NCBI GenBank assembly: GCA_028681135.1
Contig: JAQUJC010000006.1
Location: 3,189-67,188, forward strand
Source: Kiritimatiellia bacterium
GTDB taxonomy: Bacteria > Verrucomicrobiota > Kiritimatiellia > CAIQIC01 > Lenti-01
Direction: 5' to 3'
Length of the DNA stretch: 64,000 bases
Below, one piece after another: positions 23,851-49,203 of this stretch; the first letter of the stretch is position 1, and each line of letters begins with the position of its first letter. The notes under the pieces were generated by a model. That model made no database searches and had not been told where the DNA came from. It was given only the letters and a program-made list of their open reading frames with translations. Position numbers and translations under genes: made by a program.

Positions 23851-24037
23851 GGGGAATTCTCCTTGTGGGGGTTGTTATTTTAAAGAGGTCAGGTGTCAGG
23901 GGTCAGACGGAGTGGTCGCCGGTCCTGGTGGGGCCGGCTGCTGCCTGTATAGTTCCGCGCCTAGCAGGCGCATCTGTAATTGGCCATGATTTCATTTCGT
24001 TCGGACTCCTGAATTCTCAATTCTGTATGCTGTTTGC

Positions 24038-25203: not shown

Positions 25204-25302
25204 GGGTGGTTTCTAAACAGGTATTACAATACCAGATATAGGCTCACCCGCAACTATTTTTAGAAAAATAGGAACGCGGGGGGGGCGCGCTAATAGTGCA
25301 GG

Positions 25303-25779: not shown

Positions 25780-25836
25780 GCGTGTTCCTCTCTTTTCATG
25801 CTCGTTTTTACAGGGATGTTGGCTGGAGTCCGGCGG

Positions 25837-26649: not shown

Positions 26650-26821
26650 GCTCCGGTTCTCCAATTAAGACAATGATGTCTTATATTAGCCCGCGCGGGG
26701 CCATGTCGCAACTGGAATTCCAAAAAAAACGATGGGCGGCCGCTGGCCGAGGGGGCGCTGCGGGGTCATGATTGACGTGATGGGGGCATCTGCTATTTTG
26801 GGAGCCAGGAGTCTGAATCAC

Positions 26822-27396: not shown

Positions 27397-28518
27397 TCAG
27401 GGCCCTTTCGCGCAACGAAAACCATGGGAATTGCTTTTCGTGATCGGATCGAGGTTGGAACGGCGCGCGACGAACGCAGTGGCCGGGTAGTTGTTCCACG
27501 ATCCGCCCCGCCGTACGCGTTGTGCTCCCGTCGTGGGCCCCTGCGGGTCCGTTGTGTAGCCCGCCGAATAGGGGGCCTCCCAATCCCAGCACCATTCCCA
27601 GACGTTTCCAGCCATGTCGTGCAACCCGTACCCGTTTCCCGGGAAACAACCTGCGGGGCTTGTATACGGTATGCCGTCAGTCTGAAAGTCGGGATGCCAG
27701 CCCGATGCCGGGCTGGTGTCGTAGGAATATAGATTGTCGGCGTAGTAGTTCGCCCGCGCGTGCCGGATGGTGTCTTCGCCCCAAGGAAACAATCGGCGCT
27801 GTCGTCCGCCGCGCGCCGCTTTTTCCCACTCCGCCTCTGTCGGCAGCCGATACCCGTTCGCCGACCAGTTCACCCACGAGTTGCTGATGTCCACATTCCC
27901 GGTCTTGTACACGGTGAAGAAAAAGGGATCGATGTAATAACACGGCGTTAGGCCTTCGTATTGGCTCCGGGCATTGCACCATTTGACGCTATCGTGCCAG
28001 TTCACCATCTGCACTGGATGATTGTTCGTCTTGCCCGACCCTGGATTGTCAAAGGTGTAGCCGTTTGTACCCGCCCAGTTGTACACGTCTTTCCATTTTC
28101 CGTACGTCACTTCCATTTCGTCCATCCAGAATCCGCTGATGAAGTTCGTATGGACCGGTTCCGTGATTCCAATCTGCCCCAGTTCGACCTCGCCACCATC
28201 AATCCAAACCATGCCCAGCGGTGGGGAATGGGTCGCCATCACGACCCGGTAGAACATCGGCACCGAAACCGTGAATTCCGTCGCGCTATGGCCATCCAGC
28301 GAACCGATGTTGTCGAACGTCCGTTGCCACGGCCCGCCCGCCTGCGCGGCCCACTCCACGCGATAGAGCGCATTGCTGTCGATGGCGTTGGTCCATGACA
28401 ACTGCCCGTTGCCAGGAAACGACGTAATGACCGGGTCCTGCCCCAGTACGGCCGACGCCCAAAGCCCCATGATCATTCCGATGATCGCCATCACGCGCAG
28501 CTTGTTCTTCATAGTCAT
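27397..28518 (-). CDS. formylglycine-generating enzyme (SUMF1/FGE) family protein, secreted
   Basis: It has a signal peptide and an N-terminal FN3-like domain. The FGE-family motifs MDEMEVTYGKW, RLPTEAEWEKAARGG, GNVWEW and RGGSW are present. Confidence 0.85.
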   Translation of the reverse strand: MTMKNKLRVMAIIGMIMGLWASAVLGQDPVITSFPGNGQLSWTNAIDSNALYRVEWAAQAGGPWQRTFDNIGSLDGHSATEFTVSVPMFYRVVMATHSPPLGMVWIDGGEVELGQIGITEPVHTNFISGFWMDEMEVTYGKWKDVYNWAGTNGYTFDNPGSGKTNNHPVQMVNWHDSVKWCNARSQYEGLTPCYYIDPFFFTVYKTGNVDISNSWVNWSANGYRLPTEAEWEKAARGGRQRRLFPWGEDTIRHARANYYADNLYSYDTSPASGWHPDFQTDGIPYTSPAGCFPGNGYGLHDMAGNVWEWCWDWEAPYSAGYTTDPQGPTTGAQRVRRGGSWNNYPATAFVARRSNLDPITKSNSHGFRCAKGP

Positions 28519-33295: not shown

Positions 33296-34045
33296 TCAGG
33301 TGGCCGGCGGATTTACGGGTGGCGCTTTGGGGGGCGGCGACGAGCTCATCACCTCGGTATGAATCCGGGCGGGATCGCTCCCGAGTGCCTGAATATTATT
33401 CAGCAGGAGGTTGTGCATTTGCGGTGGACCACAGAGATAGACCTCGGCGTTGGCCACGTCGGCATATTCCGCGATGGTGGCCGCATCCAGCAGTCCGGAG
33501 CGGCAGGTTTCGGCGCGGCCCGGAGTACAGGCGGTCACGGCCGCGTCGTCTTTCCACAACACATGGACGATCTGTAAGTCGATCTTCTCCGCGATGGCTT
33601 GCAGTTCCGCGCGATGAATGATGTCTTCAACGGTATTGTTGGCCCACAACAGGACCATCCGGTTCTGGGTTCCGACCCGTGCCCAATGGCGCAACACGCT
33701 GAGAAACGGCGTGACGCCAATTCCGCCGGCAATGAAGGTGAGGCGGGGCTGTTGTTCCACATTTTTACAGAATGCGCCATAGGGGCCGCGAACACGAACG
33801 TCCGTTTCCGGTGTGGCGTGTTGCAGCGCGGTCGTGAAGGGGCCAACTGCTTTCACTGTAATGCGGAGTTCATCCTCTTCCGGCGCGCTGCTGATCGTAA
33901 AGGTGTACTCGGACGACCAGGTCTCCCCCTGGCGGATGCTGAAACGGAGGAACTGTCCCGGCGTCCAGGTAGCAAACGGCGGATCCCCGATCGTCAGGGT
34001 GACAATCCGAGGATTCTCATTTACCACTCTCGTCAGGGTTGCCAT
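33296..34045 (-). CDS. ferredoxin-NADP reductase-like FAD/NAD(P)-binding oxidoreductase
   Basis: The FAD-binding R.YS/T-like motif (SSEYTFTISS) and the NAD-binding GGIGVTPF motif are present. It carries the C-terminal LCGPPQM. Confidence 0.7.
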   Translation of the reverse strand: MATLTRVVNENPRIVTLTIGDPPFATWTPGQFLRFSIRQGETWSSEYTFTISSAPEEDELRITVKAVGPFTTALQHATPETDVRVRGPYGAFCKNVEQQPRLTFIAGGIGVTPFLSVLRHWARVGTQNRMVLLWANNTVEDIIHRAELQAIAEKIDLQIVHVLWKDDAAVTACTPGRAETCRSGLLDAATIAEYADVANAEVYLCGPPQMHNLLLNNIQALGSDPARIHTEVMSSSPPPKAPPVNPPAT

Positions 34046-34080
34046 GGGGATGCCTACAGAATCCGGCTGATCAGAGGTGA

Positions 34081-35250
34081 TCAGAGCTCGGCGTGTTTGT
34101 CCTTGATTTGGTCCGCCAGTGCGTCCAGGGCCGTGAAATCATCTGCGCACGGAATGCCTTTGCACATCACCGTGCCGAGGAGGTCCACCTTGAGATTGGG
34201 GATCGCGCCGGCGATGTGTTCGACGGCCTTGGTGGCCCAGCCGTACGAGCCGATGACAGCGGCATATTTGACTTTAGGGCGCAGGGCATTGGCCAGATGG
34301 GCCGCATACACGACCGCGGGATGCGGGCCGACCTGCACGGTGGGGGTCCCGATCACGATCGTGGCGGCATCCACCATCGCCATGGCCAGCTTGCCGATAT
34401 CGGTGACGGTCAGATCAAAAACATGGACTTTGACGCCGCGCGCCGCCAGGGCCCCGACCAGGTGGTCGACCATTTGCTGGGTGCTGCCGTGCATGGAAAT
34501 ATAGGGCAGCACGACTTCATTTTTGACCGTATCGGACACCCAGTCGCGGTAGGCATCGAGAATGAACGCCGGGTCGTCATACATCGGCCCGTGGCTGGGG
34601 GCGATGATCTGGATGTCGCGCGTTTCGACTTTGGCGATGTTGGAGCGAATGATCGTCTTAAACGGCATCATGATTTCCGCATAATAGCGCTTGGCGGCTT
34701 CATAGACCGTGGGTGGGTCTGCCACGTAGAGGTCAGTGGTCGCCAAGTGCGACCCAAAGAAGTCGCAGGAAAAGAGGATGCGGTCTTCCGTGAGATAGGT
34801 GCACATGGTTTCCGGCCAATGGACCCAGGGGGTCAAGATGAACTCCAGTGTTTTGCCACCCAGATCGAGGGTGTCGCCATCCTGAACGATCATAAAGCAG
34901 TCCTCGGGCAGGTCGAGCAGGTCCATCAACATGCCCTTGGCCTTGGTATTGGTGACGACCTTGGCGGCGGGATACTTGGCCAACACATGCGGAATGCAGC
35001 CGGAGTGATCCTGCTCCGCGTGCTGCGCAACAATGTAATCGACCGTGTCCACTTCTTCGAGCTGGCGTTGGAGCACATCCCACGTCTCGGGATCGACCGT
35101 ATCCACCAGCGCCACCTTGTCGGTGCCGCGCACCAGATAGGCATTGTAGCTGGTCCCGTCCGGCAGTGGGATCAACGAATCGAAGAGCCGCCGGTTCCAG
35201 TCCACTACCCCCAGCCAACTCACGCCATCTGTGATTTTACGCAATTGCAT
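34081..35250 (-). CDS. flavodiiron protein (FprA/ROO-type O2/NO reductase)
   Basis: It has a metallo-beta-lactamase-like di-iron domain (SYNAYLV, HAEQDHSG) followed by a flavodoxin-like domain. The start was chosen at MQLRKITDGVSW, which aligns to FDP N-termini. Confidence 0.85.
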   Translation of the reverse strand: MQLRKITDGVSWLGVVDWNRRLFDSLIPLPDGTSYNAYLVRGTDKVALVDTVDPETWDVLQRQLEEVDTVDYIVAQHAEQDHSGCIPHVLAKYPAAKVVTNTKAKGMLMDLLDLPEDCFMIVQDGDTLDLGGKTLEFILTPWVHWPETMCTYLTEDRILFSCDFFGSHLATTDLYVADPPTVYEAAKRYYAEIMMPFKTIIRSNIAKVETRDIQIIAPSHGPMYDDPAFILDAYRDWVSDTVKNEVVLPYISMHGSTQQMVDHLVGALAARGVKVHVFDLTVTDIGKLAMAMVDAATIVIGTPTVQVGPHPAVVYAAHLANALRPKVKYAAVIGSYGWATKAVEHIAGAIPNLKVDLLGTVMCKGIPCADDFTALDALADQIKDKHAEL

Positions 35251-35405
35251 CTGCCAATCTCCGTTTAACTGTTCTGTGGACTCATTGGGTTTGAGTCCTC
35301 TGTGTTGTGTTGCGCCTACTTTACACAACGTCGACGAGAAGCGCAAACGGACAGATGAATTCGCTGCGAATACGGGCGGAAGCAACGACAACTCAACAGG
35401 GGGGG

Positions 35406-36674
35406 TTACTGATAAGGGCTGCGCTGGCCGAATTGTGGGCCGCGGTGAACGGCGGCATAGCTGAAATCCTTATCGAGCAGCTTGTGGCGGAAGCGGGATA
35501 CATCGACTTGATCGCGGATCAAGGCACCGTAAAAACCGGATTTCTGAATGTCGCCCACGAATACCATGCCCACGATACGCCCATCTTTTAGCACGAGCTT
35601 CTTGTAGATGGCATCCCCCTCGGACAGGCTGACCACTTCGACATTCTCCCGGCTATCGCTGTCCACCAGCACCTGACCAAGGGAAATCGCCGGAATCTGA
35701 TGAAATTGAACGGCATTCTGGATGCCGACAGCACCGGTATAGGGCCGAGTCCGGCCAGCCATGTTATAGGCGGCGTACTTGCCTTGCAACACGGCATTGA
35801 ACCAGGTGGCCGAGGGCATTCGCTTGCCGGTACTGACGTCATCGATTTCGATGGCGTCGCCGGCGGCAAAAATGTGGGGGGCCGAGGTTTGCAGCCGATT
35901 GCTCACCCGAATACCCCGTGCCGTTTCGAGACCGGCTTGAGCCGCCAAGCCCTTGTTGGGCTCGGTGCCGGTCGCCACGATGACGAAATCGGCCTGCACC
36001 TGGGGCTTTTCGGCGAGCATGACGCCGGTGGCGCGGTCAGACCCGTTAATCGCGGCTACGCTTTGGTTGAGAATGATCTGGACGCCCATCCGTTCCAGAT
36101 CCCGGTGGATAATGGTGGCGCCTTGGGCGTCGAGTTGGTTGGGCAGGATTTGGCCGCAGCGTTCGACTACGGTCACCTTGAGCCTCTTGCGTGCCAACGC
36201 ATAGGCGGCCTCCAGCCCGGCAAATCCTGCGCCGATGATCGCGACGGTTTGCGTCGGTGATGTTTGGGCGGTGATCGCCTGGGCATCTTTTAGGGAATGG
36301 AAGGTGCAGACGCCCTCGAGGTCGCAGCCCGGGATGGCGGGCAACCAGGGGCGGGACCCCGTGGCCAGCAGCAATTTATCGTAGACGACGGTTTCTCCGT
36401 TGTCACAGATCACCGTGTTGGAGCCGGGTCGAATGCTGGTGACCCGCACGCCGGAGGAATAGTGAATCCGGTGATCGGCCGCAAAATGATCGGTCTTGAA
36501 ATACAGGTCACGTTCCTGCAGGCGCCCGTCTGCGTAGCGTGAAATCAGGCAACGCGAATAGGGCGGTCCGGCCTCTTCGGTGAGGATGCGGATGTCTCCG
36601 TCCGGGTCGAGTTTCCGGAGGTCTTCGGCGGCTTGTGCGCCCGCCGCGCTGGCACCGATAATGACATAGGTCAT
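35406..36674 (-). CDS. FAD-dependent pyridine nucleotide-disulfide oxidoreductase, NAD(P)H:rubredoxin oxidoreductase (NorW/NROR-like)
   Basis: The start MTYVIIGASAAG carries the GxGxxG motif, and a second dinucleotide site VAIIGAGFAGLE is present. The true start at 36674 overlaps the cooF-like stop (ATGA). Confidence 0.8.
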   Translation of the reverse strand: MTYVIIGASAAGAQAAEDLRKLDPDGDIRILTEEAGPPYSRCLISRYADGRLQERDLYFKTDHFAADHRIHYSSGVRVTSIRPGSNTVICDNGETVVYDKLLLATGSRPWLPAIPGCDLEGVCTFHSLKDAQAITAQTSPTQTVAIIGAGFAGLEAAYALARKRLKVTVVERCGQILPNQLDAQGATIIHRDLERMGVQIILNQSVAAINGSDRATGVMLAEKPQVQADFVIVATGTEPNKGLAAQAGLETARGIRVSNRLQTSAPHIFAAGDAIEIDDVSTGKRMPSATWFNAVLQGKYAAYNMAGRTRPYTGAVGIQNAVQFHQIPAISLGQVLVDSDSRENVEVVSLSEGDAIYKKLVLKDGRIVGMVFVGDIQKSGFYGALIRDQVDVSRFRHKLLDKDFSYAAVHRGPQFGQRSPYQ

Positions 36675-37168
36675 GGTACATTTCCTTTGGCGTTGAAAAC
36701 TGGTTCGGGTACGTCGCTCACCGCCAGCACGTTCATGGGACAGGCGGCGACGCACGCCGGGGTGTCTAGGTTCGGGCACAGGTCACACTTCAAGGCCACA
36801 GCAAAGGAAGATTGATCTTCGCCGCCCGCGTCGTAGGACGGTGAAATAACACCATAGGGACAGGCCATGATGCACATCCAGCAACCTACGCACTGCTGCT
36901 CGTGGCCGACGTTGTTGACGATTCCTGTCTCGGGGTCTTTCTGCATGCAGCCAGCCATGCAGGCGCTGACGCACAGCGGCTCGACGCAATGGCGGCACAC
37001 CAGCGGCACGGGTCCGCGGTCGTATTCGATCAGAATGCGGCTCTTGGGCTCCGGCTTTTCCAGCGTGGCGAGGGCGGCGTTGCCCGCGCGAGAATGCGCG
37101 GCGATGCACGCTTGTTCGCATCGGCGGCAACCTGTGCAGTCTTCAGCTGTTACAGTCAGTTTTTTCAT
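36671..37168 (-). CDS. cooF: CooF-like 4Fe-4S ferredoxin (iron-sulfur electron-transfer subunit)
   Basis: Four Cys clusters are present (CTGCRRCEQAC, CRHCVEPLCVSAC, CVGCWMCIMACP, CDLCPNLDTPACVAACP). It lies immediately downstream of cooS. Confidence 0.8.
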   Translation of the reverse strand: MKKLTVTAEDCTGCRRCEQACIAAHSRAGNAALATLEKPEPKSRILIEYDRGPVPLVCRHCVEPLCVSACMAGCMQKDPETGIVNNVGHEQQCVGCWMCIMACPYGVISPSYDAGGEDQSSFAVALKCDLCPNLDTPACVAACPMNVLAVSDVPEPVFNAKGNVP

Positions 37169-37190
37169 TGCATGTCTCCTGGGGCTGGAT

Positions 37191-39080
37191 TCAGGACTTC
37201 TTGAGGCCGAGCGCTCCGCGCTTGGCGGCGATATGCGCTTCGATGGCGTCTGCGGCCTTCACGGGGTCCTGTTCAACAAAAACTCGGCCACCGGTCAGGC
37301 TTTCGACGTCCTGGGTCAGAATGCGGGTGACCAGCGGACTACCCATGATCGGTGGGGCCGGCGAGAGGTGCAGCGCCATCCCGAAGGCCACCGCTGTGAA
37401 CGCGTCCGCCACCGCCTTCTGTTCCATGTATTCGGGTGCCGATGCCACCACGGGCAGGTCCGGCACGTCCACGCCCAGCGCGTCTGCGACGGCCACGACG
37501 GTGGCGATGATCTTGCCGATGTCGGTGCAACTGCCGTAGGACAGGCAGGGCGGCACGCCCAGCGCGCCACACACTGAGGCGAGGCCGGGGCCCGCATGTT
37601 TGACCGAGTCGGTGCCCATGAGTCCCGCGTTTTGCATCGCGCTTGAGCAGCAGCCCGCGCCGATGACCAGGATATTGCGCTTGATCAGTTCACTCGCCAG
37701 CGTGGCGATATGCGCGCCCGACTCGCCTTCGCGGACCGTCGTGCACCCCACCAGGGCGGCAATGCCCTGCACCGAGCCGTTGGCAATCACGTCGATCAAC
37801 GGCTGGACGGTTCCGCCGAGCGCGCCGATTACGCTTTCCGTGGTGAAACCGGCAATGGCGGTTTGCTGGGTCGTGGGCACGTTGACGGCCCCGCGCTTTC
37901 CGAAGGCCGTGACAGCACGGTCGAGAATCGCCTCCGAAATGTCCACGGCCGTGTGCGGTTCGAATTCCAACCGTTCCACGCCGCCTTGCCGGATGACCTT
38001 GTCCGTGGAAATTAGGTGGGTGTGATATTTCGGAGCAAACTGTTCCGCGATGCTGGGCATGACGCAGTTATAGTCGAAGGCCAGCACGTCCACGGCTCCC
38101 GTGGCCAGCATCAATTCCTGCTGAATCCAGTTGCCGATCTGGCCGTAAAAGACGTCCTTGTATTCGGAGGCAATATTGAAGATTTGCTGGCCCTCGCACA
38201 GCGAGCCGTAGATTTTCAAGCCATTTTTGGCCCCGGCCTGCCGGGCCTTCTCCTGCCAGTTCTGCTTGCGCGCCGCCTCCAGAACCTTGATGGCCAGCAG
38301 GGGCTGGTGCCCGTGCATAATCACGTTGACGGCGTCCGGGTCGAGAACTCCGATATTGACCGAACCTTCGTTGGGCTTGGCCGTTCCGGTCAAGATTTCC
38401 TGCATGACGGTGATGCAGAATAGGCCGGCATATTCGTTGGCGATGCCCATGCGCAGGCAATGCGACAGCAGGTCTAGCACATCGTTGTTCACGTTGGTCA
38501 TCGTCTTCGACAGGCCGGTCGCTACTTCCGAGTTGGGACCGCCCGGAACGATGCCCAGCTTGCGCCAGACCGCAAGACGTTTCGGCGGTGCCAGGACGTC
38601 GACGAGCCGCATGGGGTCGTAGTCATTGCTGTTGATCTGCTGGATAAAGAGCGCACCGAGGTCACGCGCCATCTCCAGATCGGAGCCGCCGATGTCAAAC
38701 TGGGCCGCGAGTGCGCGCAATTTCTCCGGTTCCTTGATGGCATAGTCGGCCTGGCCTTCGCCGACAGCCTGCAGGGTGCGGGCCACATTGCGGGCATGGT
38801 AGACGTTGGCGGCGGTGCCCTGAGCACACTTGGCCAGCAGGTTGCGTGTCACGATCAGGTCGGCGGATGCGCCGCACACGCCGCGGTCGGCCTTGCGGGT
38901 GATCTGGCACGGACCGTCCGTGCACAGCGTGCAGCAGATGCCGAGTGTTCCAAAGGCGCATTGCGGCTGCTGGGCCGCGAACCGCTCATAGATCGTGGTC
39001 ATCCCATCCTTGCGGGCGACTTCATACATGTAATCGGACAGGCCGTCCGCCGGCTGGTTGCGATACTCAATGGTTTTCAT
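37191..39080 (-). CDS. cooS: anaerobic Ni,Fe carbon-monoxide dehydrogenase catalytic subunit
   Basis: The N-terminal cluster motifs are CAFGTLGICCTLCTDGPCQI and GVCGASAD. Its ~630 aa length, HGHQP, and the GCTTVREGESGAH and GAGCCS C-cluster regions are typical of CooS/CODH. Confidence 0.9.
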   Translation of the reverse strand: MKTIEYRNQPADGLSDYMYEVARKDGMTTIYERFAAQQPQCAFGTLGICCTLCTDGPCQITRKADRGVCGASADLIVTRNLLAKCAQGTAANVYHARNVARTLQAVGEGQADYAIKEPEKLRALAAQFDIGGSDLEMARDLGALFIQQINSNDYDPMRLVDVLAPPKRLAVWRKLGIVPGGPNSEVATGLSKTMTNVNNDVLDLLSHCLRMGIANEYAGLFCITVMQEILTGTAKPNEGSVNIGVLDPDAVNVIMHGHQPLLAIKVLEAARKQNWQEKARQAGAKNGLKIYGSLCEGQQIFNIASEYKDVFYGQIGNWIQQELMLATGAVDVLAFDYNCVMPSIAEQFAPKYHTHLISTDKVIRQGGVERLEFEPHTAVDISEAILDRAVTAFGKRGAVNVPTTQQTAIAGFTTESVIGALGGTVQPLIDVIANGSVQGIAALVGCTTVREGESGAHIATLASELIKRNILVIGAGCCSSAMQNAGLMGTDSVKHAGPGLASVCGALGVPPCLSYGSCTDIGKIIATVVAVADALGVDVPDLPVVASAPEYMEQKAVADAFTAVAFGMALHLSPAPPIMGSPLVTRILTQDVESLTGGRVFVEQDPVKAADAIEAHIAAKRGALGLKKS

Positions 39081-39466: not shown

Positions 39467-39967
39467 CTAAGGTGTCGCCGCATCGTCCGTCTCCCTATCG
39501 CTTGGTCCATGGTACGCTTTCATATCCACGATCTTGCCGTGGGCGTCAAAAGTCATCACGTCGATGACTCGAATCAAAAGGGGGTGGCCGTCGGCCTGCA
39601 TATGGATGTCAAAGGCCATGGCGGCGGCGGCCCCGTACGACGTGCGGATTGGGGCGACCAGCTCGAGACGATCGACCTTGGTGACGGCCCTGCGATAGAA
39701 TTCATTGATCGCGGTGCGTCCCTCGACAATCGTCGCGCCTCCTACCGGGTCCTCGATCCGGGCATGGTCTGCGAACAGCGCCGCGAGCCCGCGGCCATCG
39801 TGACGGTTAAAAAGGTCGATATACGCCTGAAGCGCGATTCGCATCTGGTGTTCGCTGGCCATGGGTTCTCCTGGTGCTGCGGCCGTCGCGGCTTGCATCG
39901 TTATACCGATGGCGAGGCCCACTGCCGCAAAAAGGGCAATCACTCGTCTCGGCTTTATGCGGCTCAT
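39467..39967 (-). CDS. SnoaL/NTF2-like secreted protein
   Basis: It has a signal peptide (MSRIKPRRVIALFAAVGLAIGITMQAATAAA) and a ~130-aa NTF2-like fold pattern. The upstream part of the track ORF is likely non-coding. Confidence 0.55.
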   Translation of the reverse strand: MSRIKPRRVIALFAAVGLAIGITMQAATAAAPGEPMASEHQMRIALQAYIDLFNRHDGRGLAALFADHARIEDPVGGATIVEGRTAINEFYRRAVTKVDRLELVAPIRTSYGAAAAMAFDIHMQADGHPLLIRVIDVMTFDAHGKIVDMKAYHGPSDRETDDAATP

Positions 39968-40107
39968 ACTCGGAGTCTGCGGTTGGCATAGGTTCCTTGC
40001 TGTGGCATCCCGCACGTCGCCGGTTACGTCCGTCGTGTCCAGGTGGGTTTCGGGGGCGCTCATAGTCCGCCACATTGCGCTGTCAGGCATGCCGCTTTCC
40101 CGGGCCT

Positions 40108-40893
40108 TCATGGTTGGGCCCTGTACGTCTGCACAATGGCTGAAACCAAACGCACGAGAGCCGCGTTGCCATCCGATTCGCCCTTCTCGAAATCGTTTTC
40201 GACAACTCCCATCTGATTGGTTACGTGGGCAAAACAAATGATCGGATACCCTTTGGCCTCTGCCAGCGCATAGAGCGCCGCCGCTTCCATTTCGACGGCC
40301 AGCAGGGTTTCGGAACGCGCAAACGCAATGGCCTCGGCCGTCTCTCGAAACGGCGCGTCGGTCGTCCAGACCCCGCCTTGCACAACCGTAGCGGAGTCGC
40401 GCAATGCGCATTGTGCCAAGGCCAACGCCTCCGCCCCGATTCGCGCATAGGACGCACGAGGCCGATAGTGATAACTGGTCCCTTCATCGCGCAAGGCGCG
40501 GTCAACAAGCACGAAATACGGCGGTGGGCCAGCCGGAAGGATTTGCCCCGCCGAGGTCACGCTGATTAATAAACGGCACCCGGATGCGAATAACTCCTCC
40601 GCAACGAGCACCGCGAATGAGGCGCCAACGGCGCAGCCGAGCACCCCGACAATCGTTCCATCCACATCAAGCTCGTACAGTTCCGTGTGATAGCAGGCCC
40701 AATACGGATTGCGCTGCGCACCGGATTGCTGGAGGTGCCGGGACAGGTCGCCATCCGGATCCAGAACGCAAATATCCGGAACGCTGCCCGTCGGAATCGA
40801 CTTCTGCCTCCGCGCCTCGCGCAAAAGGCTCGTCGGTTCGAACACCGATGGCCGATCATGGTGTTTATGGTCGAGAATGGGGGGGGTGTTCAT
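40108..40893 (-). CDS. purine/uridine nucleoside phosphorylase family (PNP_UDP_1) protein
   Basis: The VEMEAAALYALA motif and the SVTSAG segment are present. The start MNTPPILD at 40893 lies 10 bp downstream of metY. Confidence 0.75.
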   Translation of the reverse strand: MNTPPILDHKHHDRPSVFEPTSLLREARRQKSIPTGSVPDICVLDPDGDLSRHLQQSGAQRNPYWACYHTELYELDVDGTIVGVLGCAVGASFAVLVAEELFASGCRLLISVTSAGQILPAGPPPYFVLVDRALRDEGTSYHYRPRASYARIGAEALALAQCALRDSATVVQGGVWTTDAPFRETAEAIAFARSETLLAVEMEAAALYALAEAKGYPIICFAHVTNQMGVVENDFEKGESDGNAALVRLVSAIVQTYRAQP

Positions 40894-40903
40894 TTCCGGT
40901 TGC

Positions 40904-42154
40904 TCAATCTTGGCGGTCCAGCGCCTGGCGGAAATCCTCCACGATATCCCGGGCATTTTCGATGCCGACCGATACGCGGATGGTGTCGTCCGTGGCCCCG
41001 AGCCGCGCTTTCTCCTCGTCGGAGTAATCGGCGCAGATGGTGCTGGCCGGATGGATGACCAGCGTCTTGGCATCGCCGATGCTGGTGAGGTTCTTCGCCA
41101 GTTTCAGCCGGTTGATGATCCGGAAAGCGGCGGCCTTGTCGGCGACGCTGAATGTCAGCAATCCGCTGGCGCGCCCGCCATAGAGTCGGGTGATCATTGC
41201 CCGGTGAGGAGAGTCCTCCAGCCCCGGATAGTTCACCCGGGCCACGCGGGGATGGTCCTGCAGGAATCGGGCCAGTGCCAGGGCGTTCGAGCAATGCCGG
41301 TCCATGCGCAGCGCCAAGGTCTGGAGTCCTTCGGTCAGCAGAAAGGAATTGAACGGCGCGGCGCATCCGCCCAGGTCCCGGTGCACACGCTTGCGGGCCT
41401 GCGCCGTGAATGCAAAATTCCGAAATGTCTGGTGGAATGGCGCGAAGTGCGGAAACGCGGGACTGTTCCAGTCGAAGACACCGCGGTCGATGATGGCCCC
41501 GCCGATGGTCGTGCCGGTGCCGTTGATGTATTTGCTGGTGGAGTACGCCAGCAGGTCGGCCCCGAGGCTGACGCCGGTGGCCAGAACCGGCGAAGTGACC
41601 GTCGTGTCGATCATCAAGGGCAGGCCCGCATCGTGCGCGAGTTGCGCCAGCGCGGGCACATCGGGCACGTCGAGCTTCGGGTTGCCGATCGTTTCCACGA
41701 ACAGCAGCCGCGTGCGGTCGGTGATCGCCTTACGGAACCCATCCAGATCCAGCGGATCCACGAATCGCGCGCTGATGCCGTATTGGGGCAGTGTGTCCCG
41801 GAACAGCGAATAGGTGCCGCCGAAGAGCGAGGACGACGAAAGAATCTCGTCGCCCGCGCGCAGGATCGTCAGCGCCGCCGTGGAAATGGCCGCCATGCCG
41901 GAGGCCGTGGCGATGGCCGAGCCACCGCCTTCCAGAAGGGCCAGCCGTTTTTCCAAGGCCCCCGTGGTCGGATTGCCCATCCGGGTATAGACCGGTCCCG
42001 CGGCACGACCGCGAAACAGGTTCTCCAGTTCCTCCGCCGTGGGCTTGGCAAAGGAAGACGATTGCACGATGGGCACGGCGGTGGCACCCCCAGGGCCCGA
42101 TTCCAATCCGCCGTGGACTAGTTGGGTTTCGATCTGATATGGATTTTTACTCAT
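40904..42154 (-). CDS. metY: O-acetylhomoserine sulfhydrylase (PLP-dependent Cys/Met metabolism family)
   Basis: It has the PLP-lysine motif YSTSKYINGTG. ETIGNP..DV and the N-terminal QLVHGG are present. Its 416 aa length is typical. Confidence 0.85.
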   Translation of the reverse strand: MSKNPYQIETQLVHGGLESGPGGATAVPIVQSSSFAKPTAEELENLFRGRAAGPVYTRMGNPTTGALEKRLALLEGGGSAIATASGMAAISTAALTILRAGDEILSSSSLFGGTYSLFRDTLPQYGISARFVDPLDLDGFRKAITDRTRLLFVETIGNPKLDVPDVPALAQLAHDAGLPLMIDTTVTSPVLATGVSLGADLLAYSTSKYINGTGTTIGGAIIDRGVFDWNSPAFPHFAPFHQTFRNFAFTAQARKRVHRDLGGCAAPFNSFLLTEGLQTLALRMDRHCSNALALARFLQDHPRVARVNYPGLEDSPHRAMITRLYGGRASGLLTFSVADKAAAFRIINRLKLAKNLTSIGDAKTLVIHPASTICADYSDEEKARLGATDDTIRVSVGIENARDIVEDFRQALDRQD

Positions 42155-42374
42155 GACCGCGGAACCTCAAACAGCGATGTAGATAAAAAGCGCTTTGCCC
42201 AATCGGGGCGTATCACGACGGTCGTCTCGTGGTGGGCCGAATTGGCCGGATTGCCGCGGGTCAGTTCGATGATCTCCATTCCCAGGCGAAGCGCGCCACG
42301 GACGTCGGCCTCCCACACCGTGGAAATATTTGTTTCACGCTGCGGAAAACAAAGAGAGGCGGGATGCACCGAAT

Positions 42375-42785
42375 TCATTCCCCCGCCCCCGGCACGTCGA
42401 TGGGCTCGGGTGTGGAAACACCGTCGAAGATGCGGAACGATTTCAAATCGGGAGCCGGCCCGGCCAGCGACAGGATGACGGTCGAGACGCCCGGGGCCTT
42501 GGCCAGGCGAATATCCTCTGCCGACGGCCGTGCGGGCGTGTCGGGATGGGTGTGATAGACCGCCAGCATTTCCTTTCCCTTCACGCGCAATTCTTTCGCA
42601 ACCGCGAACTGCTCCCGGGGCTCCATCAAGAAGTGAACGCGGCTTTGGTCCACGTTGGTCATGGGATGGAACTCGCTGACGACGCCACCGTTTCCGCTCA
42701 GGATTCCGCAGGTTTCCAGCGGGAATCCTGCCCGTCCGTGGGCAATCAATGCGTCTAGGATGTTTTTGGGGATGACCAGCATCAC
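42375..42785 (-). CDS. JAMM/MPN+ metalloprotease (Mec+/HcyD-like, sulfur-carrier C-terminal processing)
   Basis: The catalytic E (PLETCGIL) and the HTHPDTPARPSAED motif (HxHx7Sx2D) are present. It is adjacent to the E1-like and ThiS-like genes. Confidence 0.8.
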   Translation of the reverse strand: MMLVIPKNILDALIAHGRAGFPLETCGILSGNGGVVSEFHPMTNVDQSRVHFLMEPREQFAVAKELRVKGKEMLAVYHTHPDTPARPSAEDIRLAKAPGVSTVILSLAGPAPDLKSFRIFDGVSTPEPIDVPGAGE

Positions 42786-43597
42786 GTTGTCTCCAACTCG
42801 CAGACGTTCAGGGCGTCAGAGTTGTCTTTCAATTCCGTGAGGGTCGGCTGGCTGCCGCAAACCGGGCACTTGGGATTGCGCTGGATGCGGATTTCGCGGA
42901 AGGTCAGGGAGGTCGCGTTATAGGTCAGCAGGCGCCCGGTTAGGAGGTCGCCAATGCCAAGCAGATATTTGATGGCCTCGGTGGCCTGAATCGTGCCGAT
43001 CACGCCGGGCAGCACGCCGATCACCCCGGCCTCAGAACAGGTGGGAATGGCGTCCTTGGGGGGAGGGGCCGAAAAAATGCAGCGGTAGCAGGCGGATTCG
43101 TGCGGCTTGACGGTCAGTGTCTGGCCGTCGAAGCGCAGAATGCCACCATGCGAATACGGCTTGTTGCCCAGGACGCAGGCGTCGTTGATCAAAAACTTGG
43201 TGGCGAAGTTATCGGTGCCGTCGATGATGAAGTCATAGTCGGCGATAAACCCGGCGATGTTCTCGGCGCTGATCCATTCCTGGTGAGGATGCACCGTCAC
43301 ATCCGGATTGATGGCGCGGACTTTTTCGGCGGCCGAGACCACCTTGGGCTTGCCGATGTCCGGAGTGAAGTGGATGACCTGCCGCTGCAGGTTGGTCACA
43401 TCGACCATGTCCGCGTCGGCGATGCCGAGGGTGCCGACGCCCGCCGCGCCGAGATAGAGTGCGATGGGCGCGCCGAGGCCGCCGGCACCGATAATCAGTA
43501 CACGCCCCGCCAGCAACTTCTCCTGGCCCTTGCCGCCGATGTCCTGCAGCAGAATGTGCCGGGAATAGCGCTCGATCTGGTCCGCACGCAAACTCAT
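42782..43597 (-). CDS. MoeB/ThiF/MoeZ-type E1-like adenylyltransferase (HcyF-like)
   Basis: The N-terminus reads RYSRHILL. The ATP-binding motif GAGGLGAP, the catalytic Cys region, and the C-terminal CxxC zinc motif (CPVCG) are present. There is no rhodanese domain. Confidence 0.9.
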   Translation of the reverse strand: MSLRADQIERYSRHILLQDIGGKGQEKLLAGRVLIIGAGGLGAPIALYLGAAGVGTLGIADADMVDVTNLQRQVIHFTPDIGKPKVVSAAEKVRAINPDVTVHPHQEWISAENIAGFIADYDFIIDGTDNFATKFLINDACVLGNKPYSHGGILRFDGQTLTVKPHESACYRCIFSAPPPKDAIPTCSEAGVIGVLPGVIGTIQATEAIKYLLGIGDLLTGRLLTYNATSLTFREIRIQRNPKCPVCGSQPTLTELKDNSDALNVCELETT

Positions 43598-43809
43598 TGG
43601 CCTCCACCCCCCATGAAGTACAGGAATTCCAGCACGTCGCCGTCCTTCACTTGCGTGGTGCCAAAGGCTTCGCGCTCGAGAATGGTGCCGTTGAGTTCCA
43701 CGGTCACGTAGAGCGGATCGGCCACCTTCAGCGTGACGAGGGTCTCGTCGATATTCAGCGATTCCGTTCCCGCAATTTCCCTGGTTTCTCCGTTGACGGT
43801 CAGTTTCAT
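43594..43809 (-). CDS. ThiS/MoaD-family sulfur carrier protein with C-terminal GG-GGQ extension (HcyS/CysO-like)
   Basis: It is 71 aa with a beta-grasp pattern. It ends ...EFLYFMGGGGQ, so a Gly-Gly is followed by extra residues as in JAMM-processed carriers. It overlaps its neighbours by 4 bp. Confidence 0.75.
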   Translation of the reverse strand: MKLTVNGETREIAGTESLNIDETLVTLKVADPLYVTVELNGTILEREAFGTTQVKDGDVLEFLYFMGGGGQ

Positions 43810-44048
43810 GCGGGGCTCCCTTCCCGTTTTTGGATGACCAGCTTGTGGACGTTGTCTTTCACATGGACGTTCTCCACCACCGTGAATCCTTGCTCAATGG
43901 CGGTCTTGGGCACATTGCTCAGCGGCTCGCCCTCGCAGAGCAGCACTTCCAGCGTGTCGCCAGCGATCAGTTTTTCCAATTCCAGTTTGGTCTTCACAAA
44001 CGTCATCGGGCAGCGATCCTGGGTGATGTCCAGATGGATTGTACTCAT
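43806..44048 (-). CDS. tusA: TusA-family sulfurtransferase
   Basis: It is 80 aa with the CPMT (CPxP) active-site motif near the N-terminus (DITQDRCPMTFVKTK). Confidence 0.8.
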   Translation of the reverse strand: MSTIHLDITQDRCPMTFVKTKLELEKLIAGDTLEVLLCEGEPLSNVPKTAIEQGFTVVENVHVKDNVHKLVIQKREGSPA

Positions 44049-44524
44049 ATGAATAACGTTTCCCCTCCGTGGGACAGCTCGAGGAATGTCGCGACGCCCA
44101 GCACGTCCCGGATTTCGGGAATGAAATCGCCTTTTTTCAGGCCGAGCACGTGCATCGCCATTTCGCAGGCGTAGAGGTTCACGCCCAGCGCGAGGGAGGC
44201 ATCGAACAGCTCGTTCAGCGTCGCCACCTTGCGGCTTTTCATCAGGCCGGTCATCAGCTTTGGACTCAGCCCGCCGAAGTTCAGTCGACTCAGCGGCAGG
44301 GTCTTCCGTCCGCCCATCATGAAATTGAACGCACGGTCCAGGAAGCCCTTGCCCAGAAAGCGCCGCCCAGTCTTTTGCTTGATGATGTTCAATCCCCAGA
44401 AGGTGAAGAAGATATTCACCTCATAGTTCACCGCCGCCGCCCCCGATGCCAGGGTGAAGGCCGCGATCGCTTTGTCGAACTCTCCGCTCATGCAAATCAA
44501 AGACATTTTTTTCGTATCCGCCAT
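44045..44524 (-). CDS. DsrE/DsrF-like family protein
   Basis: It is ~159 aa and paralogous to the C-terminal domain of the 44872-47304 fusion protein (VNIFFTFWGLNIIK vs VSIFFTFWGLSVLR; ACEMAMHVLG vs ACDMAMGVMG). An AAGGAG RBS is present. Confidence 0.75.
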   Translation of the reverse strand: MADTKKMSLICMSGEFDKAIAAFTLASGAAAVNYEVNIFFTFWGLNIIKQKTGRRFLGKGFLDRAFNFMMGGRKTLPLSRLNFGGLSPKLMTGLMKSRKVATLNELFDASLALGVNLYACEMAMHVLGLKKGDFIPEIRDVLGVATFLELSHGGETLFI

Positions 44525-44871
44525 TACGTGCTCCTTCTCAAATGATACCTTCCACAGATAAACTAGATAATAGGAGTTATCAAATTCATTTCGGAAATTG
44601 TTCTGCCATGACTACCGGATTGAATCCTGGGAAATGGGACGAAAAATAGCTTAACTGGTTGTTTGTCTGTTAAGATATATAGGCAACCCACTTTTGGCGC
44701 TCTTCGCCGAGGGTTGCGCAATATCGAGTTTTTTGTCCGTTCAGACCTTCGGATCGGGGTGGTCGGGATGCCTCACCGAGACGTCCGTCTGGCGGGTCCG
44801 GAGCGAGGGTTTGGCGTCCATTCCCAGCCGTGATATATTTCAACCCGCTTTTACAAAGGAAGAGGCCTCGA

Positions 44872-47304
44872 ATGAAAACAATCATAATTGGCGGTGTGGC
44901 GGGCGGAGCAAGTACGGCGGCGCGCCTGCGACGGCTGGACGAGCAGGCCGAAATTATCATGATCGAGCGCGGGCCGCACATTTCCTATGCCAACTGCGGG
45001 CTGCCCTATCATTTAGGGGGCATCATTCCGGAGCGCGATTGGCTGCTGGTGATGACGCCGGAGGATTTTCGCGGACGGTTCAATGTGGATGTGCGCGTGA
45101 ATCACGAAGTCGTGTCGATTGACCGCGCAAACAAGACGGTCGTTGTTCTAAATCGGCAGGATGGTACAGAGCGCACCGACCGCTACGATAAACTGGTCAT
45201 CGCCACCGGTTCCTCGCCCATGACGTTAAACCTGCCGGGGCTGGACCTGCCGGAGGTGCTGCCGCTGTGGACGCTGCAAGACATGGACCGCATTGCCCGC
45301 AAATTGGATGCGGGCGTGAAGAGCGTCATTGTGGTGGGTGGCGGGTTTGTGGGGATGGAATTGGCGGAGAGCCTGCGGCATCGCGGGCTTGCTGTGACCC
45401 TGCTGGAAATGGGCCACCAACTGCTCCCGACCATGGATAAGGAAATGAGTTCGCTGCTGGCCGAAGAATTGCGGCTGGCGGGCATTGTGGTGGAACTGGG
45501 CGCGGCCGTGTCCGCATTCGCGCCCGCGCAAGACCATTCGGTGCAAGCCACGGTCAAGGATGGCCGGTCCTGGACCGCAGACCTAGTTGTCATGTGCGTG
45601 GGCGTGACGCCCACGTCGGGGCTGGCCCAGGCCGCGGGACTCGAGACGGGACCCAAGGGGCATATTCTGACCAATGCCCAAATGTGCACATCCGATCCAG
45701 ATATCTATGCGCTGGGCGATGTGGTGGCGGTGACGGACCCAGTGTTTGGCGGCACCACGGCCGTCCCGCTGGCCGGGCCCGCCAATCGCCAGGGGCGTAT
45801 TGTGGCCGACAACATTATGGGCCGCGAACGCAGCTATGACGGGACCTTCGGGGCCTCGGTCGTCAAGGTGGGCCGCTTGACGGCTGCCAGTTGCGGACAT
45901 ACCGAGGCACGCCTCCTGGAATTGGAAAAACCCTATCGCAAGGTCTATCTGCACCCCGGGTCCCATGCCGGGTATTATCCGGGCGCTCGCGAGCTGCATA
46001 TCAAGTTGTTATATGGCGATGACGGCAAAATCTATGGCGGACAGGTGATCGGGGCCGAGGGGGCTGACAAGCGCGCCGACGTATTGGCCACCGCCATGCG
46101 CGCCGGGATGGATGTGCGCCAGATCGCCGAACTGGAGCTGTGTTATGCCCCCCCGTTTAGCTCGGCCAAGGACCCCATCAGCGTGGCGGGCATGATTGCC
46201 ACAAATGTGCTGGATGGGACAAGCCGGGTGGTCCAGGCCGATGATCTGCCCCCTGATGCACTCTTCCTGGATGTGCGTGAACCCGCCGAAGTCGACCTGG
46301 GCGCGCTGCCGGGGGCAGTGAATATTCCCCTGCACCAGTTGCGCGCGCGCGCCTTCGAATTGCCCAAAGATCAGATGATCGTGATCTATTGCCACCAGGG
46401 CTTGCGTGGCTATGTAGCTGAACGGATTCTGCGGCAACTGGGATATGACGTGGTCAACCTGACCGGCGGCTACCAGACCTGGAAGCAGTTCCAGCCCGAG
46501 CGCTGGATGCCCACCGACGACGAGATCGCCGTATCCCTCACCGGCAGCGAAGGGGGGCCGCGCCTGGAGTCCGACGAGACCGAACCGGCGCTCGTGGTCG
46601 ATGTGAGGGGATTGCAATGTCCGGGCCCCGTGGTCCGGATCAAAAAGGAAATCGATGCCCTGGCCGCGGGCGGGATGATCAAGGTGGTGGCGGCGCCGGG
46701 CTTCACCCCGGACTTGACCAACTGGGCCAAGAGCTGCGGCCACAAGGTCATCCGGCTGACGCAGAAGGACGACCGCTTGGAAGCCGTCCTGCGCAAAGGC
46801 ACCGCCGTGGCACCGGGGGCGGCGGCCGGCACGGCGACCGCGGGCGCGCTCGTGCTGTTCAGCAACGATCTCGACAAGGCCCTGGCGGCACTAATCATCG
46901 CCACGGGTATGGCCGCGGCGGGGATGCAGGTGAGTATCTTCTTTACCTTCTGGGGGCTCAGCGTGCTACGCAAGCATCCGGGGCCGCAGGTCCGGAAATC
47001 GCTCATCAACCGCATGTTCGGCTGGATGCTGCCGCAGGGCGCCCCAAAACTCGCGCTCTCCAAAATGCACATGGCCGGCATGGGCACCGCAATGATGAAA
47101 CATGTCATGAAGCAGCAGCATGTGGCCTCGCTGCCCGACATGATTCAGAGCGCCCGACAACTGGGCGTCAAATTCATTGCCTGCGACATGGCTATGGGCG
47201 TCATGGGCATTACAGAAGAAGAACTGATCGAGGTCGACGAAGTCGCCGGTGTCGCCACCTTTATCGCCCGCGCCAAGGAAAGCGGCCCGACGCTGTTTAT
47301 CTAA
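44872..47304 (+). CDS. four-domain fusion: CoA-disulfide/persulfide reductase (FAD pyridine nucleotide-disulfide oxidoreductase) - rhodanese - TusA-like - DsrE-like
   Basis: The N-terminus MKTIIIGGVAGGASTAARL has the CoADR active Cys (SYANCGLPY). The rhodanese domain has CHQGLRG. The TusA-like domain has LQCPGP (CPxP). The C-terminal ~170 aa is DsrE-like. The start at 44872 is preferred because an AAGGAAGAGG RBS precedes it. Confidence 0.85.
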   Translation: MKTIIIGGVAGGASTAARLRRLDEQAEIIMIERGPHISYANCGLPYHLGGIIPERDWLLVMTPEDFRGRFNVDVRVNHEVVSIDRANKTVVVLNRQDGTERTDRYDKLVIATGSSPMTLNLPGLDLPEVLPLWTLQDMDRIARKLDAGVKSVIVVGGGFVGMELAESLRHRGLAVTLLEMGHQLLPTMDKEMSSLLAEELRLAGIVVELGAAVSAFAPAQDHSVQATVKDGRSWTADLVVMCVGVTPTSGLAQAAGLETGPKGHILTNAQMCTSDPDIYALGDVVAVTDPVFGGTTAVPLAGPANRQGRIVADNIMGRERSYDGTFGASVVKVGRLTAASCGHTEARLLELEKPYRKVYLHPGSHAGYYPGARELHIKLLYGDDGKIYGGQVIGAEGADKRADVLATAMRAGMDVRQIAELELCYAPPFSSAKDPISVAGMIATNVLDGTSRVVQADDLPPDALFLDVREPAEVDLGALPGAVNIPLHQLRARAFELPKDQMIVIYCHQGLRGYVAERILRQLGYDVVNLTGGYQTWKQFQPERWMPTDDEIAVSLTGSEGGPRLESDETEPALVVDVRGLQCPGPVVRIKKEIDALAAGGMIKVVAAPGFTPDLTNWAKSCGHKVIRLTQKDDRLEAVLRKGTAVAPGAAAGTATAGALVLFSNDLDKALAALIIATGMAAAGMQVSIFFTFWGLSVLRKHPGPQVRKSLINRMFGWMLPQGAPKLALSKMHMAGMGTAMMKHVMKQQHVASLPDMIQSARQLGVKFIACDMAMGVMGITEEELIEVDEVAGVATFIARAKESGPTLFI

Positions 47305-49035: not shown

Positions 49036-49155
49036 TTCCACAGTGTGGAAGAAAAGTTTCCACAGTGTGGAAAAACGGGGCGGATTTTTCCACGGTATGG
49101 AAAAGTGGTGGGCCAATCTTCCACGCTATGGAAAATAGTTTTCCACAGTGTGGAA
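49036..49155. promoter_or_regulatory. array of five 15-bp palindromic sites TTCCAC-N3-GTGGAA (3 perfect TTCCACAGTGTGGAA, 2 variants) at alternating 22/30-31 bp spacing
   Basis: The copies lie at 49036-49050, 49058-49072, 49088-49102, 49119-49133 and 49141-49155. All five therefore fall on one DNA face at ~2 and ~3 helical-turn steps. The array sits between the nrdR stop and the start of the 48289-49011 gene. Confidence 0.55.
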
Positions 49156-49203
49156 AACAGCGGTGGGACAACAGGCTGCGGCAGGCCGCGGGAGGGGGGG
49201 GGG

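Follow-up and report, generated by a model that had tools for sequence, protein, structure and literature searches.

From what donor does a ThiS-like carrier protein receive its sulfur when the E1 enzyme that activates it has no rhodanese domain? For HcyS-type carriers served by such an E1 we know of no donor that has ever been identified. As reviews relate, the gene cluster of Wolinella reportedly makes homocysteine via a thiocarboxylate formed on HcyS, and the sole reconstitution of an HcyS-type route is said to have used free sulfide. We examined a cluster of this kind, at 40904-44524 of a 64,000-nucleotide stretch of DNA (hereafter the window) from a Kiritimatiellia bacterium (assembly GCA_028681135.1, contig JAQUJC010000006.1, positions 3,189 to 67,188), in which the carrier operon also encodes a DsrE2-like protein (Pfam family DrsE_2) and a TusA-like protein.

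Gene neighbourhoods that bring together ThiS, JAB, E1, SirA (that is, TusA) and O-acetylhomoserine sulfhydrylase were described by Iyer, Burroughs & Aravind in 2006 (PMC1779556, Table 1 row 4e). Their class 4e includes Wolinella succinogenes and Geobacter metallireducens; in it the E1 is always without rhodanese, and SirA is constant and a probable substitute for the rhodanese (PMC1779556). We read the cluster in the window as a variant of the HcyS/HcyF/HcyD/MetY thiocarboxylate route to homocysteine that has no sulfite reductase and is fitted with a DsrE2-like/TusA-like pair, and we put the probability of this reading at roughly 0.55.

The carrier module and its class

The genes of the cluster and their immediate neighbours are given below (aa, amino acids; ORF, open reading frame).

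44045-44524, minus strand: DrsE_2 (DsrE2-like), putative sulfur-transfer protein, 159 aa (Pfam PF13686, E 2e-44)
43806-44048, minus strand: TusA-like protein, 80 aa (Pfam PF01206, E 3e-16)
43594-43809, minus strand: HcyS-type sulfur carrier of ThiS/MoaD fold, 71 aa (Pfam ThiS)
42782-43597, minus strand: E1-like adenylyltransferase of HcyF/MoeB/ThiF type, 271 aa, without rhodanese (Pfam ThiF, residues 11-246)
42375-42785, minus strand: JAMM/JAB metalloprotease of HcyD/Mec+ type, 135-136 aa (Pfam Prok-JAB, E 2e-27)
42151-42378, minus strand: 75-aa ORF, decayed cysK remnant (CysK fragment matches)
40904-42154, minus strand: MetY, O-acetylhomoserine sulfhydrylase, 416 aa (Pfam Cys_Met_Meta_PP, E 4e-113)
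40108-40893, minus strand: nucleoside phosphorylase-like protein of the PNP_UDP_1 family (PNP), 261 aa (Pfam, E 4e-25)
44525-44871: divergent spacer of 347 bp between the DrsE_2 and CoADR fusion genes
44872-47304, plus strand: CoADR-Rhodanese-TusA-DrsE_2 four-domain fusion, 810 aa (Pfam Pyr_redox_2, Pyr_redox_dim, Rhodanese, TusA, DrsE_2)

The ORF listing, Pfam, NCBIfam and independent gene calls on public contigs of identical sequence (a Kiritimatiellae metagenome-assembled genome) agree on this gene set. An earlier reading of the same DNA, the original prediction, had named metY, a JAMM protease, a rhodanese-free E1, a 71-aa carrier, TusA, DsrE and a PNP-family gene, and all of these are present, on the minus strand, where it put them. 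It had further supposed that all the genes of the cluster overlap by 4 bp. Overlaps of that length do join DrsE_2 to TusA, TusA to ThiS and ThiS to E1, and E1 overlaps JAB by 4 or 1 bp according to the start codon chosen, but JAB and metY are separated by 220 bp (42155-42374), a gap filled by the 75-aa ORF. MetY and the PNP gene are spaced by 10 bp. No terminator-like site was detected on the minus strand from 44524 to 40904. The module order DrsE_2-TusA-ThiS-E1-JAB is repeated in related Kiritimatiellae/Lentisphaerae contigs and, because the same five genes recur in the same order, the arrangement is not due to chance.

Is the carrier a ThiS of thiamin synthesis? It scores above the NCBIfam ThiS equivalog cutoff (TIGR01683; 56.7 against 37.45 bits), and its closest solved structure is 2K5P/3CWI (E 4e-24). 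A true ThiS has a free Gly-Gly (GG) terminus and needs no JAB protease. The window carrier, unlike a thiamin ThiS with its free end and its thiF/thiG/thiH context, has a C-terminal extension: it is a pro-form, ...EFLYFMGGG-GQ, that ends FMGGGGQ. Its homologues number hundreds, at 60-82% identity, and ...EFLYFMGGG followed by one to four variable residues (R, RG, Q, K, AR) is found in 25 of 25 aligned homologues and in nearly all of the 120 listed. As judged from these sequences, the GGG-plus-tail pattern marks a predicted pro-carrier, one that a JAMM protease would trim.

The partners of the carrier are intact in their motifs. The E1 has GAGGLG, CYRC170 and CPVC244 (two CxxC) and Cys187, is 70-78% identical to the E1 of canonical Geobacter clusters, and gave no Pfam domain besides ThiF, hence no rhodanese. 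In JAB the site E24...H78-x-H80-x7-S88-x2-D91 (H78THPDTPARPSAED91) is complete; among solved structures 2KKS comes nearest to it (E 3.5e-28). MetY scores 454 bits with the NCBIfam subfamily of O-acetylhomoserine/O-acetylserine (OAH/OAS) sulfhydrylases, and its Protein Data Bank (PDB) matches are OAH sulfhydrylases, including 3RI6. It shares 71-76% identity with MetY from the ThiS-E1-JAB clusters of Geobacter, and only 51% with the carrier-adjacent MetY of another Kiritimatiellia genome (L059).

In what company is such a carrier found? A scan with the carrier over one genome per species of the Genome Taxonomy Database (GTDB) gave at least 590 loci, the best 80 of which were compared with the window proteins by tblastn. 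The genome census was confined to the 47 loci flanked by 5 kb or more on each side, and a gene was counted if it lay no further than 6 kb from the carrier. E1 and JAB are each present at 47 of the 47 loci, a TusA-like gene at 45, a sulfite-reductase-like gene (Sir) at 44 and MetY at 43, with a PALP (cysteine synthase-like) gene at 14/47 and DrsE_2 at just 2/47. The commonest order is MetY-ThiS-E1-JAB-Sir-TusA, and it is carried by Geobacterales, Selenomonadales, Clostridia, Margulisbacteria, Planctomycetes, Armatimonadota, Nitrospirae, Actinomycetota and another Kiritimatiellia genome. The fusion of the route to TusA and DsrE, which the original prediction had offered as new, is therefore new only in part: TusA is a known and nearly constant partner (Iyer et al. 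2006; the 45 loci above), and it is DrsE_2 that is unusual.

The tail pattern of the carrier, the intact motifs, the frequency of MetY nearby and the class described by Iyer et al. (2006) support placing the carrier, E1, JAB and MetY of the window in the neighbourhood class that contains the Wolinella protein-thiocarboxylate methionine pathway, as the original prediction had it. The link to the Wolinella proteins themselves is indirect, by way of Geobacter-type loci and class 4e. Within the 64 kb of the window there is no sulfite-reductase-like gene; tblastn with both types of the enzyme returned only a 54-aa ferredoxin-like match at 24.6 kb. In Geobacter-type clusters (L008, L010, L011, L025-L027, L099) a gene for a PP-loop ATPase (weak NAD_synthase/Asn_synthase Pfam matches) and/or MnmA often comes after JAB/Sir/TusA, a hint that the same carrier may feed a thiolation enzyme as well.

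The DsrE2-like/TusA-like pair

What are the two proteins encoded ahead of the carrier? DrsE_2 falls below the cutoff of the NCBIfam DsrE2 equivalog (NF047629; 80.4 against 210 bits) and within the wider Pfam DrsE_2 family (151.5 against a cutoff of 25 bits). The family is strongly conserved, with 1791 homologues at E<1e-10, many of them at 70-86% identity. A candidate active-site cysteine, Cys120, lies in the motif YACEMAM. Of 120 homologues 110 have this cysteine motif, and in the alignments with the closest structures, 3PNX (E 2e-25) and 2QS7 (a DsrE2B), the cysteine is matched.

The TusA-like protein scores 59.4 bits with PF01206 (cutoff 28.6 bits). Its Cys13, in CPMT-FVK-x-K, aligns with the cysteine of TM0983 and of YedF; YedF is also its best NCBIfam match, at 34 bits against a cutoff of 79. 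Neither selD nor yedE was seen among the annotated genes of the window, in which selenium handling received no dedicated search. Where a canonical TusA has CPxP, this protein reads CPMT. The pattern CP-x-[TN]-FVK-x-K is common to all cluster-linked TusA proteins, with CPMT in 16 of the 16 copies linked to DrsE_2 and CP-x-[TN] in those linked to sulfite reductase. These motifs place the window protein in a putative cluster-specific subfamily rather than with the canonical CPxP type. We considered whether DrsE_2 and TusA are recent duplicates of the corresponding domains of the divergent fusion, and rejected this: the two DrsE_2 sequences are 38% identical, and the TusA sequences gave no match at E 1e-3.

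Does the pair belong with the carrier? When metagenomes were scanned with DrsE_2, 80 loci were obtained, 25 of them flanked by 5 kb or more on each side. TusA adjoins DrsE_2 in 74 of the 80. Among the 25 well-flanked loci, ThiS/E1 is linked (within 10 kb) in 17 and a SrpI-like shell and/or a long cysteine desulfurase in 18; both the carrier and the encapsulin linkage are found in 11, and neither in 1. About 20 loci have the pair as an insert that separates E1 from JAB, giving PALP-ThiS-MetY-E1-DrsE_2-TusA-JAB followed by Sir-TusA or SrpI-CyD. The Kiritimatiellae/Lentisphaerae relatives that keep the order of the window module have MetY adjacent in some cases and absent in others, and Trichlorobacter ammonificans has DrsE_2-TusA-SrpI-CyD-SAT...ThiS-ThiF-JAB-TusA. 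The recurrence of this linkage in different phyla, and in several gene orders, is good evidence from comparison that the pair and the carrier module are functionally tied, as far as gene order can indicate. Since the tie to the desulfurase encapsulins is equally strong, and the pair coexists with sulfite reductase in some loci, we regard the pair as an added device for sulfur entry or sulfur handling and not as a simple replacement.

Three further features of these neighbourhoods were observed. The pair lies beside one or more genes for a Family 2B (cNMP-binding) SrpI-like shell, a long cysteine desulfurase, SAT and CysK in L015 (9584-16115), L097 (9740-13951), L099 (2493-8675) and many of L101-L180. 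A gene for an outer-membrane channel (FadL/Toluene_X), which may import a hydrophobic sulfur compound, stands directly upstream of DrsE_2 in the Kiritimatiellae-like loci L005-L007, L013-L014, L101, L104 and L111; the window is without it. A Prismane-family gene neighbours the module in L099/L100.

The junction with metY and the surroundings of the cluster

What fills the gap between JAB and metY? The 75-aa ORF has no Pfam and no NCBIfam match. Three fragments of it are collinear with CysK: residues 19-43 match CysK 51-75 (E 2e-7), residues 43-53 match 149-159, and residues 51-71 match 295-315 (E 9e-7). The full PALP fold, including the region of the lysine that holds pyridoxal phosphate (PLP), is absent, so that the ORF is a pseudogene remnant. 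The idea that it is a new small protein was rejected in favour of this cysK relic, there being no homologue outside the identical contigs. A riboswitch or leader in the 220-bp spacer was also rejected, on the grounds that no Rfam family matches and that the z-score of the RNA fold is -0.34. Across the whole window no Rfam family reaches its gathering score, and within 39900-45000 nothing appears at E<1 except V_AS7, a spurious match antisense to the CoADR coding sequence.

How did the junction arise? In the closest relative, L101 (about 80% DNA identity), the order is CoADR fusion (divergent)-Toluene_X-DrsE_2-TusA-ThiS-E1-JAB-cysK, with cysK intact, and in L015 JAB is followed by SAT-SrpI-SrpI-CyD-cysK-metY. 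These two orders, taken with the cysK fragments, lead us to conclude that the ancestor of the window had JAB-cysK-metY. The fragments point to decay of cysK through internal deletions, by which the present gene order would have arisen; the ATGA overlap at the start of metY goes back to the former junction of cysK with metY. Loss of a 6.6-kb SAT-SrpI-SrpI-CyD-cysK block, suggested as the source of the spacer by L015, was dropped, internal decay being the simpler account because the closer relative L101 has cysK directly after JAB. The original prediction had looked to comparative genomics for conservation of its seven-gene arrangement; what the comparison reveals is a recent product of rearrangement, with a decayed cysK between JAB and metY.

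The 5' part of the 75-aa ORF also contains, at 42311-42347, two degenerate copies of the palindrome TTCCAC-N3-GTGGAA. Five copies are found at 49036-49157, immediately beyond nrdR at its 3' end, and the window as a whole has 11 matches where chance would give 2.4. L013 (9438-9535), L015 (9453-9554) and L101 (5881-5926) have the same palindromes immediately 3' of JAB, regardless of the next gene. Each half fits the DnaA-box consensus TTWTNCACA; the palindromes could be REP-like elements, operators or DnaA sites. Beside the array of DnaA-box-like palindromes, near 48 kb, the GC skew steps up from about 0.05 to a level of about 0.2, and from there to the window's end it remains high.

Does the PNP gene, 3' of metY, belong to the same unit? 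The original prediction had proposed it as a nucleosidase of methylthioadenosine or S-adenosylhomocysteine. NCBIfam and PDB comparison gave no MtnN/Pfs signature, and no PNP gene was found beside MetY among about 175 related loci, so that this proposal was not borne out. The NCBIfam matches (DeoD, HpnG, Udp) are all below threshold, those in the PDB are weak (DeoD, the Sulfolobus-type methylthioadenosine phosphorylase 1JDS, and Udp), and the protein is a member of a highly conserved, uncharacterised clade. Its membership in the functional unit is doubtful. A 76%-identical homologue was observed in a Lentisphaerae cluster (L181/L182, 3746-6669), with an SQR/FCSD-like gene, the PNP gene, an S-adenosylmethionine-dependent methyltransferase gene and DsrE joined by 4-bp overlaps, near an ArsR-rhodanese gene. 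Since this homologue sits in a sulfur gene cluster, the PNP gene might have a sulfur-related role.

On the other side of the cluster lies the divergent fusion, followed by a gene for an Fe/Mn superoxide dismutase (SOD). A sigma-70-type scan, uninformative for this phylum, placed promoter-like sites in 44525-44871 on the plus strand only and none on the minus strand upstream of DrsE_2; this interval presumably holds both divergent promoters. The fusion has one motif-consistent cysteine in each domain (42, 507, 583, 771), with Cys42 in SYANCGLPY and Cys507 in YCHQGL, as in a CoADR-rhodanese protein, and scores 433 bits with the NCBIfam CoA-disulfide reductase (cutoff 579). From its domains it is probably a (CoA-)persulfide/polysulfide reductase that depends on NAD(P)H and contains sulfur-carrier domains of its own. 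The original prediction was right that a rhodanese/CoADR fusion is encoded divergently, but the protein has four domains, TusA and DrsE_2 among them, and it is not a conserved partner: it stands beside the module in 1 of the 80 DrsE_2 loci (L101) and in none of the other Kiritimatiellae relatives.

Further out, the flanks at 22294-26664 and 33296-39080 are rich in redox and stress genes of an anaerobe, among them those that encode a 518-aa hybrid-cluster protein, a ferredoxin, a protein with a hemerythrin domain and a flavodiiron-type protein. The flanks also have an FGE-sulfatase-family gene (27397-28518) and a set comprising a CooS-like protein (629 aa), CooF and an FAD oxidoreductase. On the plus strand, 2144-16990 is a single ORF of 4948 aa. 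Its repeats are of the fibronectin type III and PATR (autotransporter passenger-type) kinds, and its product is presumably a surface protein of giant size.

A proposed sulfur route, its alternatives and known systems

How might the cluster make homocysteine? JAB would trim the variable tail of the carrier and expose a glycine C-terminus, as the family-wide GGG-plus-tail pattern and the Wolinella precedent suggest. The rhodanese-less E1, with its intact motifs, would then adenylate this glycine. Persulfide sulfur on Cys13 of the TusA-like protein and/or Cys120 of DrsE_2 might attack the acyl-adenylate, one cysteine acting as donor and another thiol resolving the acyl-disulfide to leave the carrier thiocarboxylate. 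By analogy with the Wolinella and mycobacterial systems, MetY would condense the thiocarboxylate with O-acetylhomoserine, and JAB, like Wolinella HcyD and mycobacterial Mec+, would hydrolyse the carrier-homocysteine adduct and free homocysteine. The persulfide could come, in relatives, from an encapsulated cysteine desulfurase; in the window the CoADR-rhodanese-TusA-DrsE_2 fusion is the sole neighbouring candidate. The original prediction had a TusA-DsrE relay deliver sulfane sulfur. Recurrent linkage does tie the pair to the carrier module; for the delivery itself, by DsrE/TusA, the support is gene linkage only.

Several points weigh against the reading of the cluster as a thiocarboxylate route fitted with this pair. 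Every chemical step in this organism is deduced from gene content and motifs. Sulfite reductase may be encoded elsewhere in the genome, outside the 64 kb analysed. In the nearest Kiritimatiellae relatives the module has no MetY beside it. The pair is as often linked to SrpI-cysteine desulfurase, SAT and CysK (the 18 loci of 25 given above) and may serve another sulfur function; it also occurs alone, without any carrier genes, in L098, and some loci combine it with sulfite reductase and a second TusA. Free bisulfide is reportedly enough for formation of the Wolinella thiocarboxylate in vitro, so a protein donor may be dispensable. DsrE2B, the closest characterised type, showed in vitro neither reaction with any sulfur compound nor binding to TusA (Liu et al. 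2014).

Much of this would fit a cluster in which carrier, E1, JAB and MetY use free sulfide, plentiful for an anaerobe, and DrsE_2-TusA is merely co-regulated and handles sulfane sulfur. The pair would then mobilise or buffer persulfide or S0 from desulfurase/encapsulin stores, or take part in defence against reactive sulfur together with the CoADR fusion and SOD. The linkage to SrpI-CyD-SAT-CysK, the carrier-free locus, the bisulfide reconstitution and the inert DsrE2B all agree with it, as do the redox and stress genes around the cluster (SOD, hybrid-cluster protein, hemerythrin, flavodiiron protein, CoADR fusion). However, the independent insertions between E1 and JAB in the metagenomes and the 4-bp overlaps in the window are tighter than usual co-regulation, and an E1 that lacks rhodanese normally depends on some separate donor of persulfide (Iyer et al. 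2006). We judge the free-sulfide account somewhat unlikely. Could the carrier instead serve another acceptor, metY having come to lie beside it by rearrangement? The alternatives would be cysteine synthesis of CysK/CysM type, as in the mycobacterial CysO route, thiolation of tRNA by PP-loop enzymes, and thiamin or molybdopterin synthesis. In favour of such a role are the ThiS score, the former cysK between JAB and metY, the PALP genes near other carriers, the PP-loop or MnmA genes that follow the module in several Geobacter loci, and the closest Kiritimatiellae relatives, which have the module without an adjacent MetY. Against this stand the near-constancy of MetY in the carrier family, the closer similarity of the window MetY to the cluster-embedded Geobacter enzymes than to that of L059, the masked end of the carrier with its JAB protease, and a cysK that has decayed where metY is intact. 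Co-occurrence with thiG or moaE, which the original prediction had named as evidence for such a role, was looked for and found in none of the Pfam-annotated neighbourhoods. We consider another acceptor improbable. Very improbable indeed is a ubiquitin-like conjugation system of SAMP/TtuB type, with JAB as deconjugase and sulfur transfer secondary: the E1 and JAB do match the NCBIfam models for the SAMP-activating E1 and the desampylase, at 337 and 70 bits, but both scores are below the curated cutoffs (450 and 130 bits), sulfur amino-acid enzymes surround nearly all loci, and no E2-like or proteasome genes are present.

Returning to the thiocarboxylate route, what might the pair add to it? It is a concrete candidate sulfur donor, inside or beside the carrier operon. 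We suggest, tentatively, that it is a dedicated persulfide donor, and possibly the resolving thiol, for the rhodanese-less HcyF-type E1. The fuller clusters would then link desulfurase encapsulins, as sulfur stores, to thiocarboxylate-based synthesis of cysteine and methionine in a pipeline without free sulfide, and the window would be a trimmed version that has no encapsulin and in which cysK has decayed. This extension is possible, if on balance doubtful. If true, it would be the first assimilatory role for the poorly understood DsrE2-type proteins and, through the relatives, would offer a possible downstream acceptor for desulfurase encapsulins. The pairing of DsrE2-like and TusA-like genes recurs in many uncultured bacteria. 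Carriers of this kind are annotated as "ThiS" and DrsE_2 proteins as "peroxiredoxin family", and both names hide the pathway in gap analyses of methionine biosynthesis.

In the literature that could be searched, which leaves out key reviews so that prior description is possible, we found no DsrE linked with HcyS-type clusters or with encapsulins, no sulfite-reductase-less architecture of this kind and no recurrent tie to Family 2B desulfurase encapsulins; the encapsulin literature searched makes no mention of TusA/DsrE.

How, then, does the locus compare with known systems? Among CoADR-rhodanese proteins, Npsr of Shewanella and CoAPR of Enterococcus are persulfide/polysulfide reductases. The divergent fusion resembles them in its CoADR fold (Cys42) and its rhodanese (Cys507), and differs in its added TusA and DrsE_2 domains and its sub-cutoff score as a CoA-disulfide reductase. 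With the Family 2B SrpI-like cysteine-desulfurase encapsulin operons (Nichols et al. 2021) the likeness is in the relatives, whose DrsE_2-TusA adjoins shell genes, long desulfurase, SAT and CysK, whereas the window has no encapsulin or desulfurase gene. The relays of Escherichia coli (IscS-TusA-TusBCD-TusE-MnmA, TusBCD being DsrEFH-like) and Allochromatium (Rhd-TusA-DsrEFH-DsrC) likewise pair a TusA-family with a DsrE-family protein, each with a single conserved cysteine. The window partner, however, is a DsrE2-like protein of PF13686, near 3PNX and 2QS7, and not the TusD/DsrE subunit of a heterohexamer, its TusA has CPMT and not CPxP, and the presumed acceptor is an adenylated carrier protein and not tRNA or DsrC.

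The CysO/MoeZ/Mec+/CysM system of Mycobacterium tuberculosis shares the combination of carrier thiocarboxylate, PLP-dependent enzyme and JAMM hydrolase, and the ancestral operon of the window had a cysK-type gene; MoeZ, however, has its own rhodanese where the window E1 has none, and the PLP enzyme of the window is MetY, cysK having decayed. Closest is the Wolinella HcyS/HcyF/HcyD/MetY cluster of class 4e, with its ThiS/MoaD carrier of masked glycine, JAMM protease, rhodanese-less E1, O-acetylhomoserine sulfhydrylase and SirA/TusA-like protein. Unlike clusters of that type, 44 of 47 of which have sulfite reductase among the canonical loci, the window cluster has neither this enzyme nor sulfate-assimilation genes nearby. 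It adds the DsrE2-like gene seen at only two of those loci, and its TusA stands upstream of the carrier with DrsE_2 and not downstream of sulfite reductase. The pathway and its TusA partner are already known; what is unusual in the window is the combination of a DrsE_2 partner with a missing sulfite reductase.

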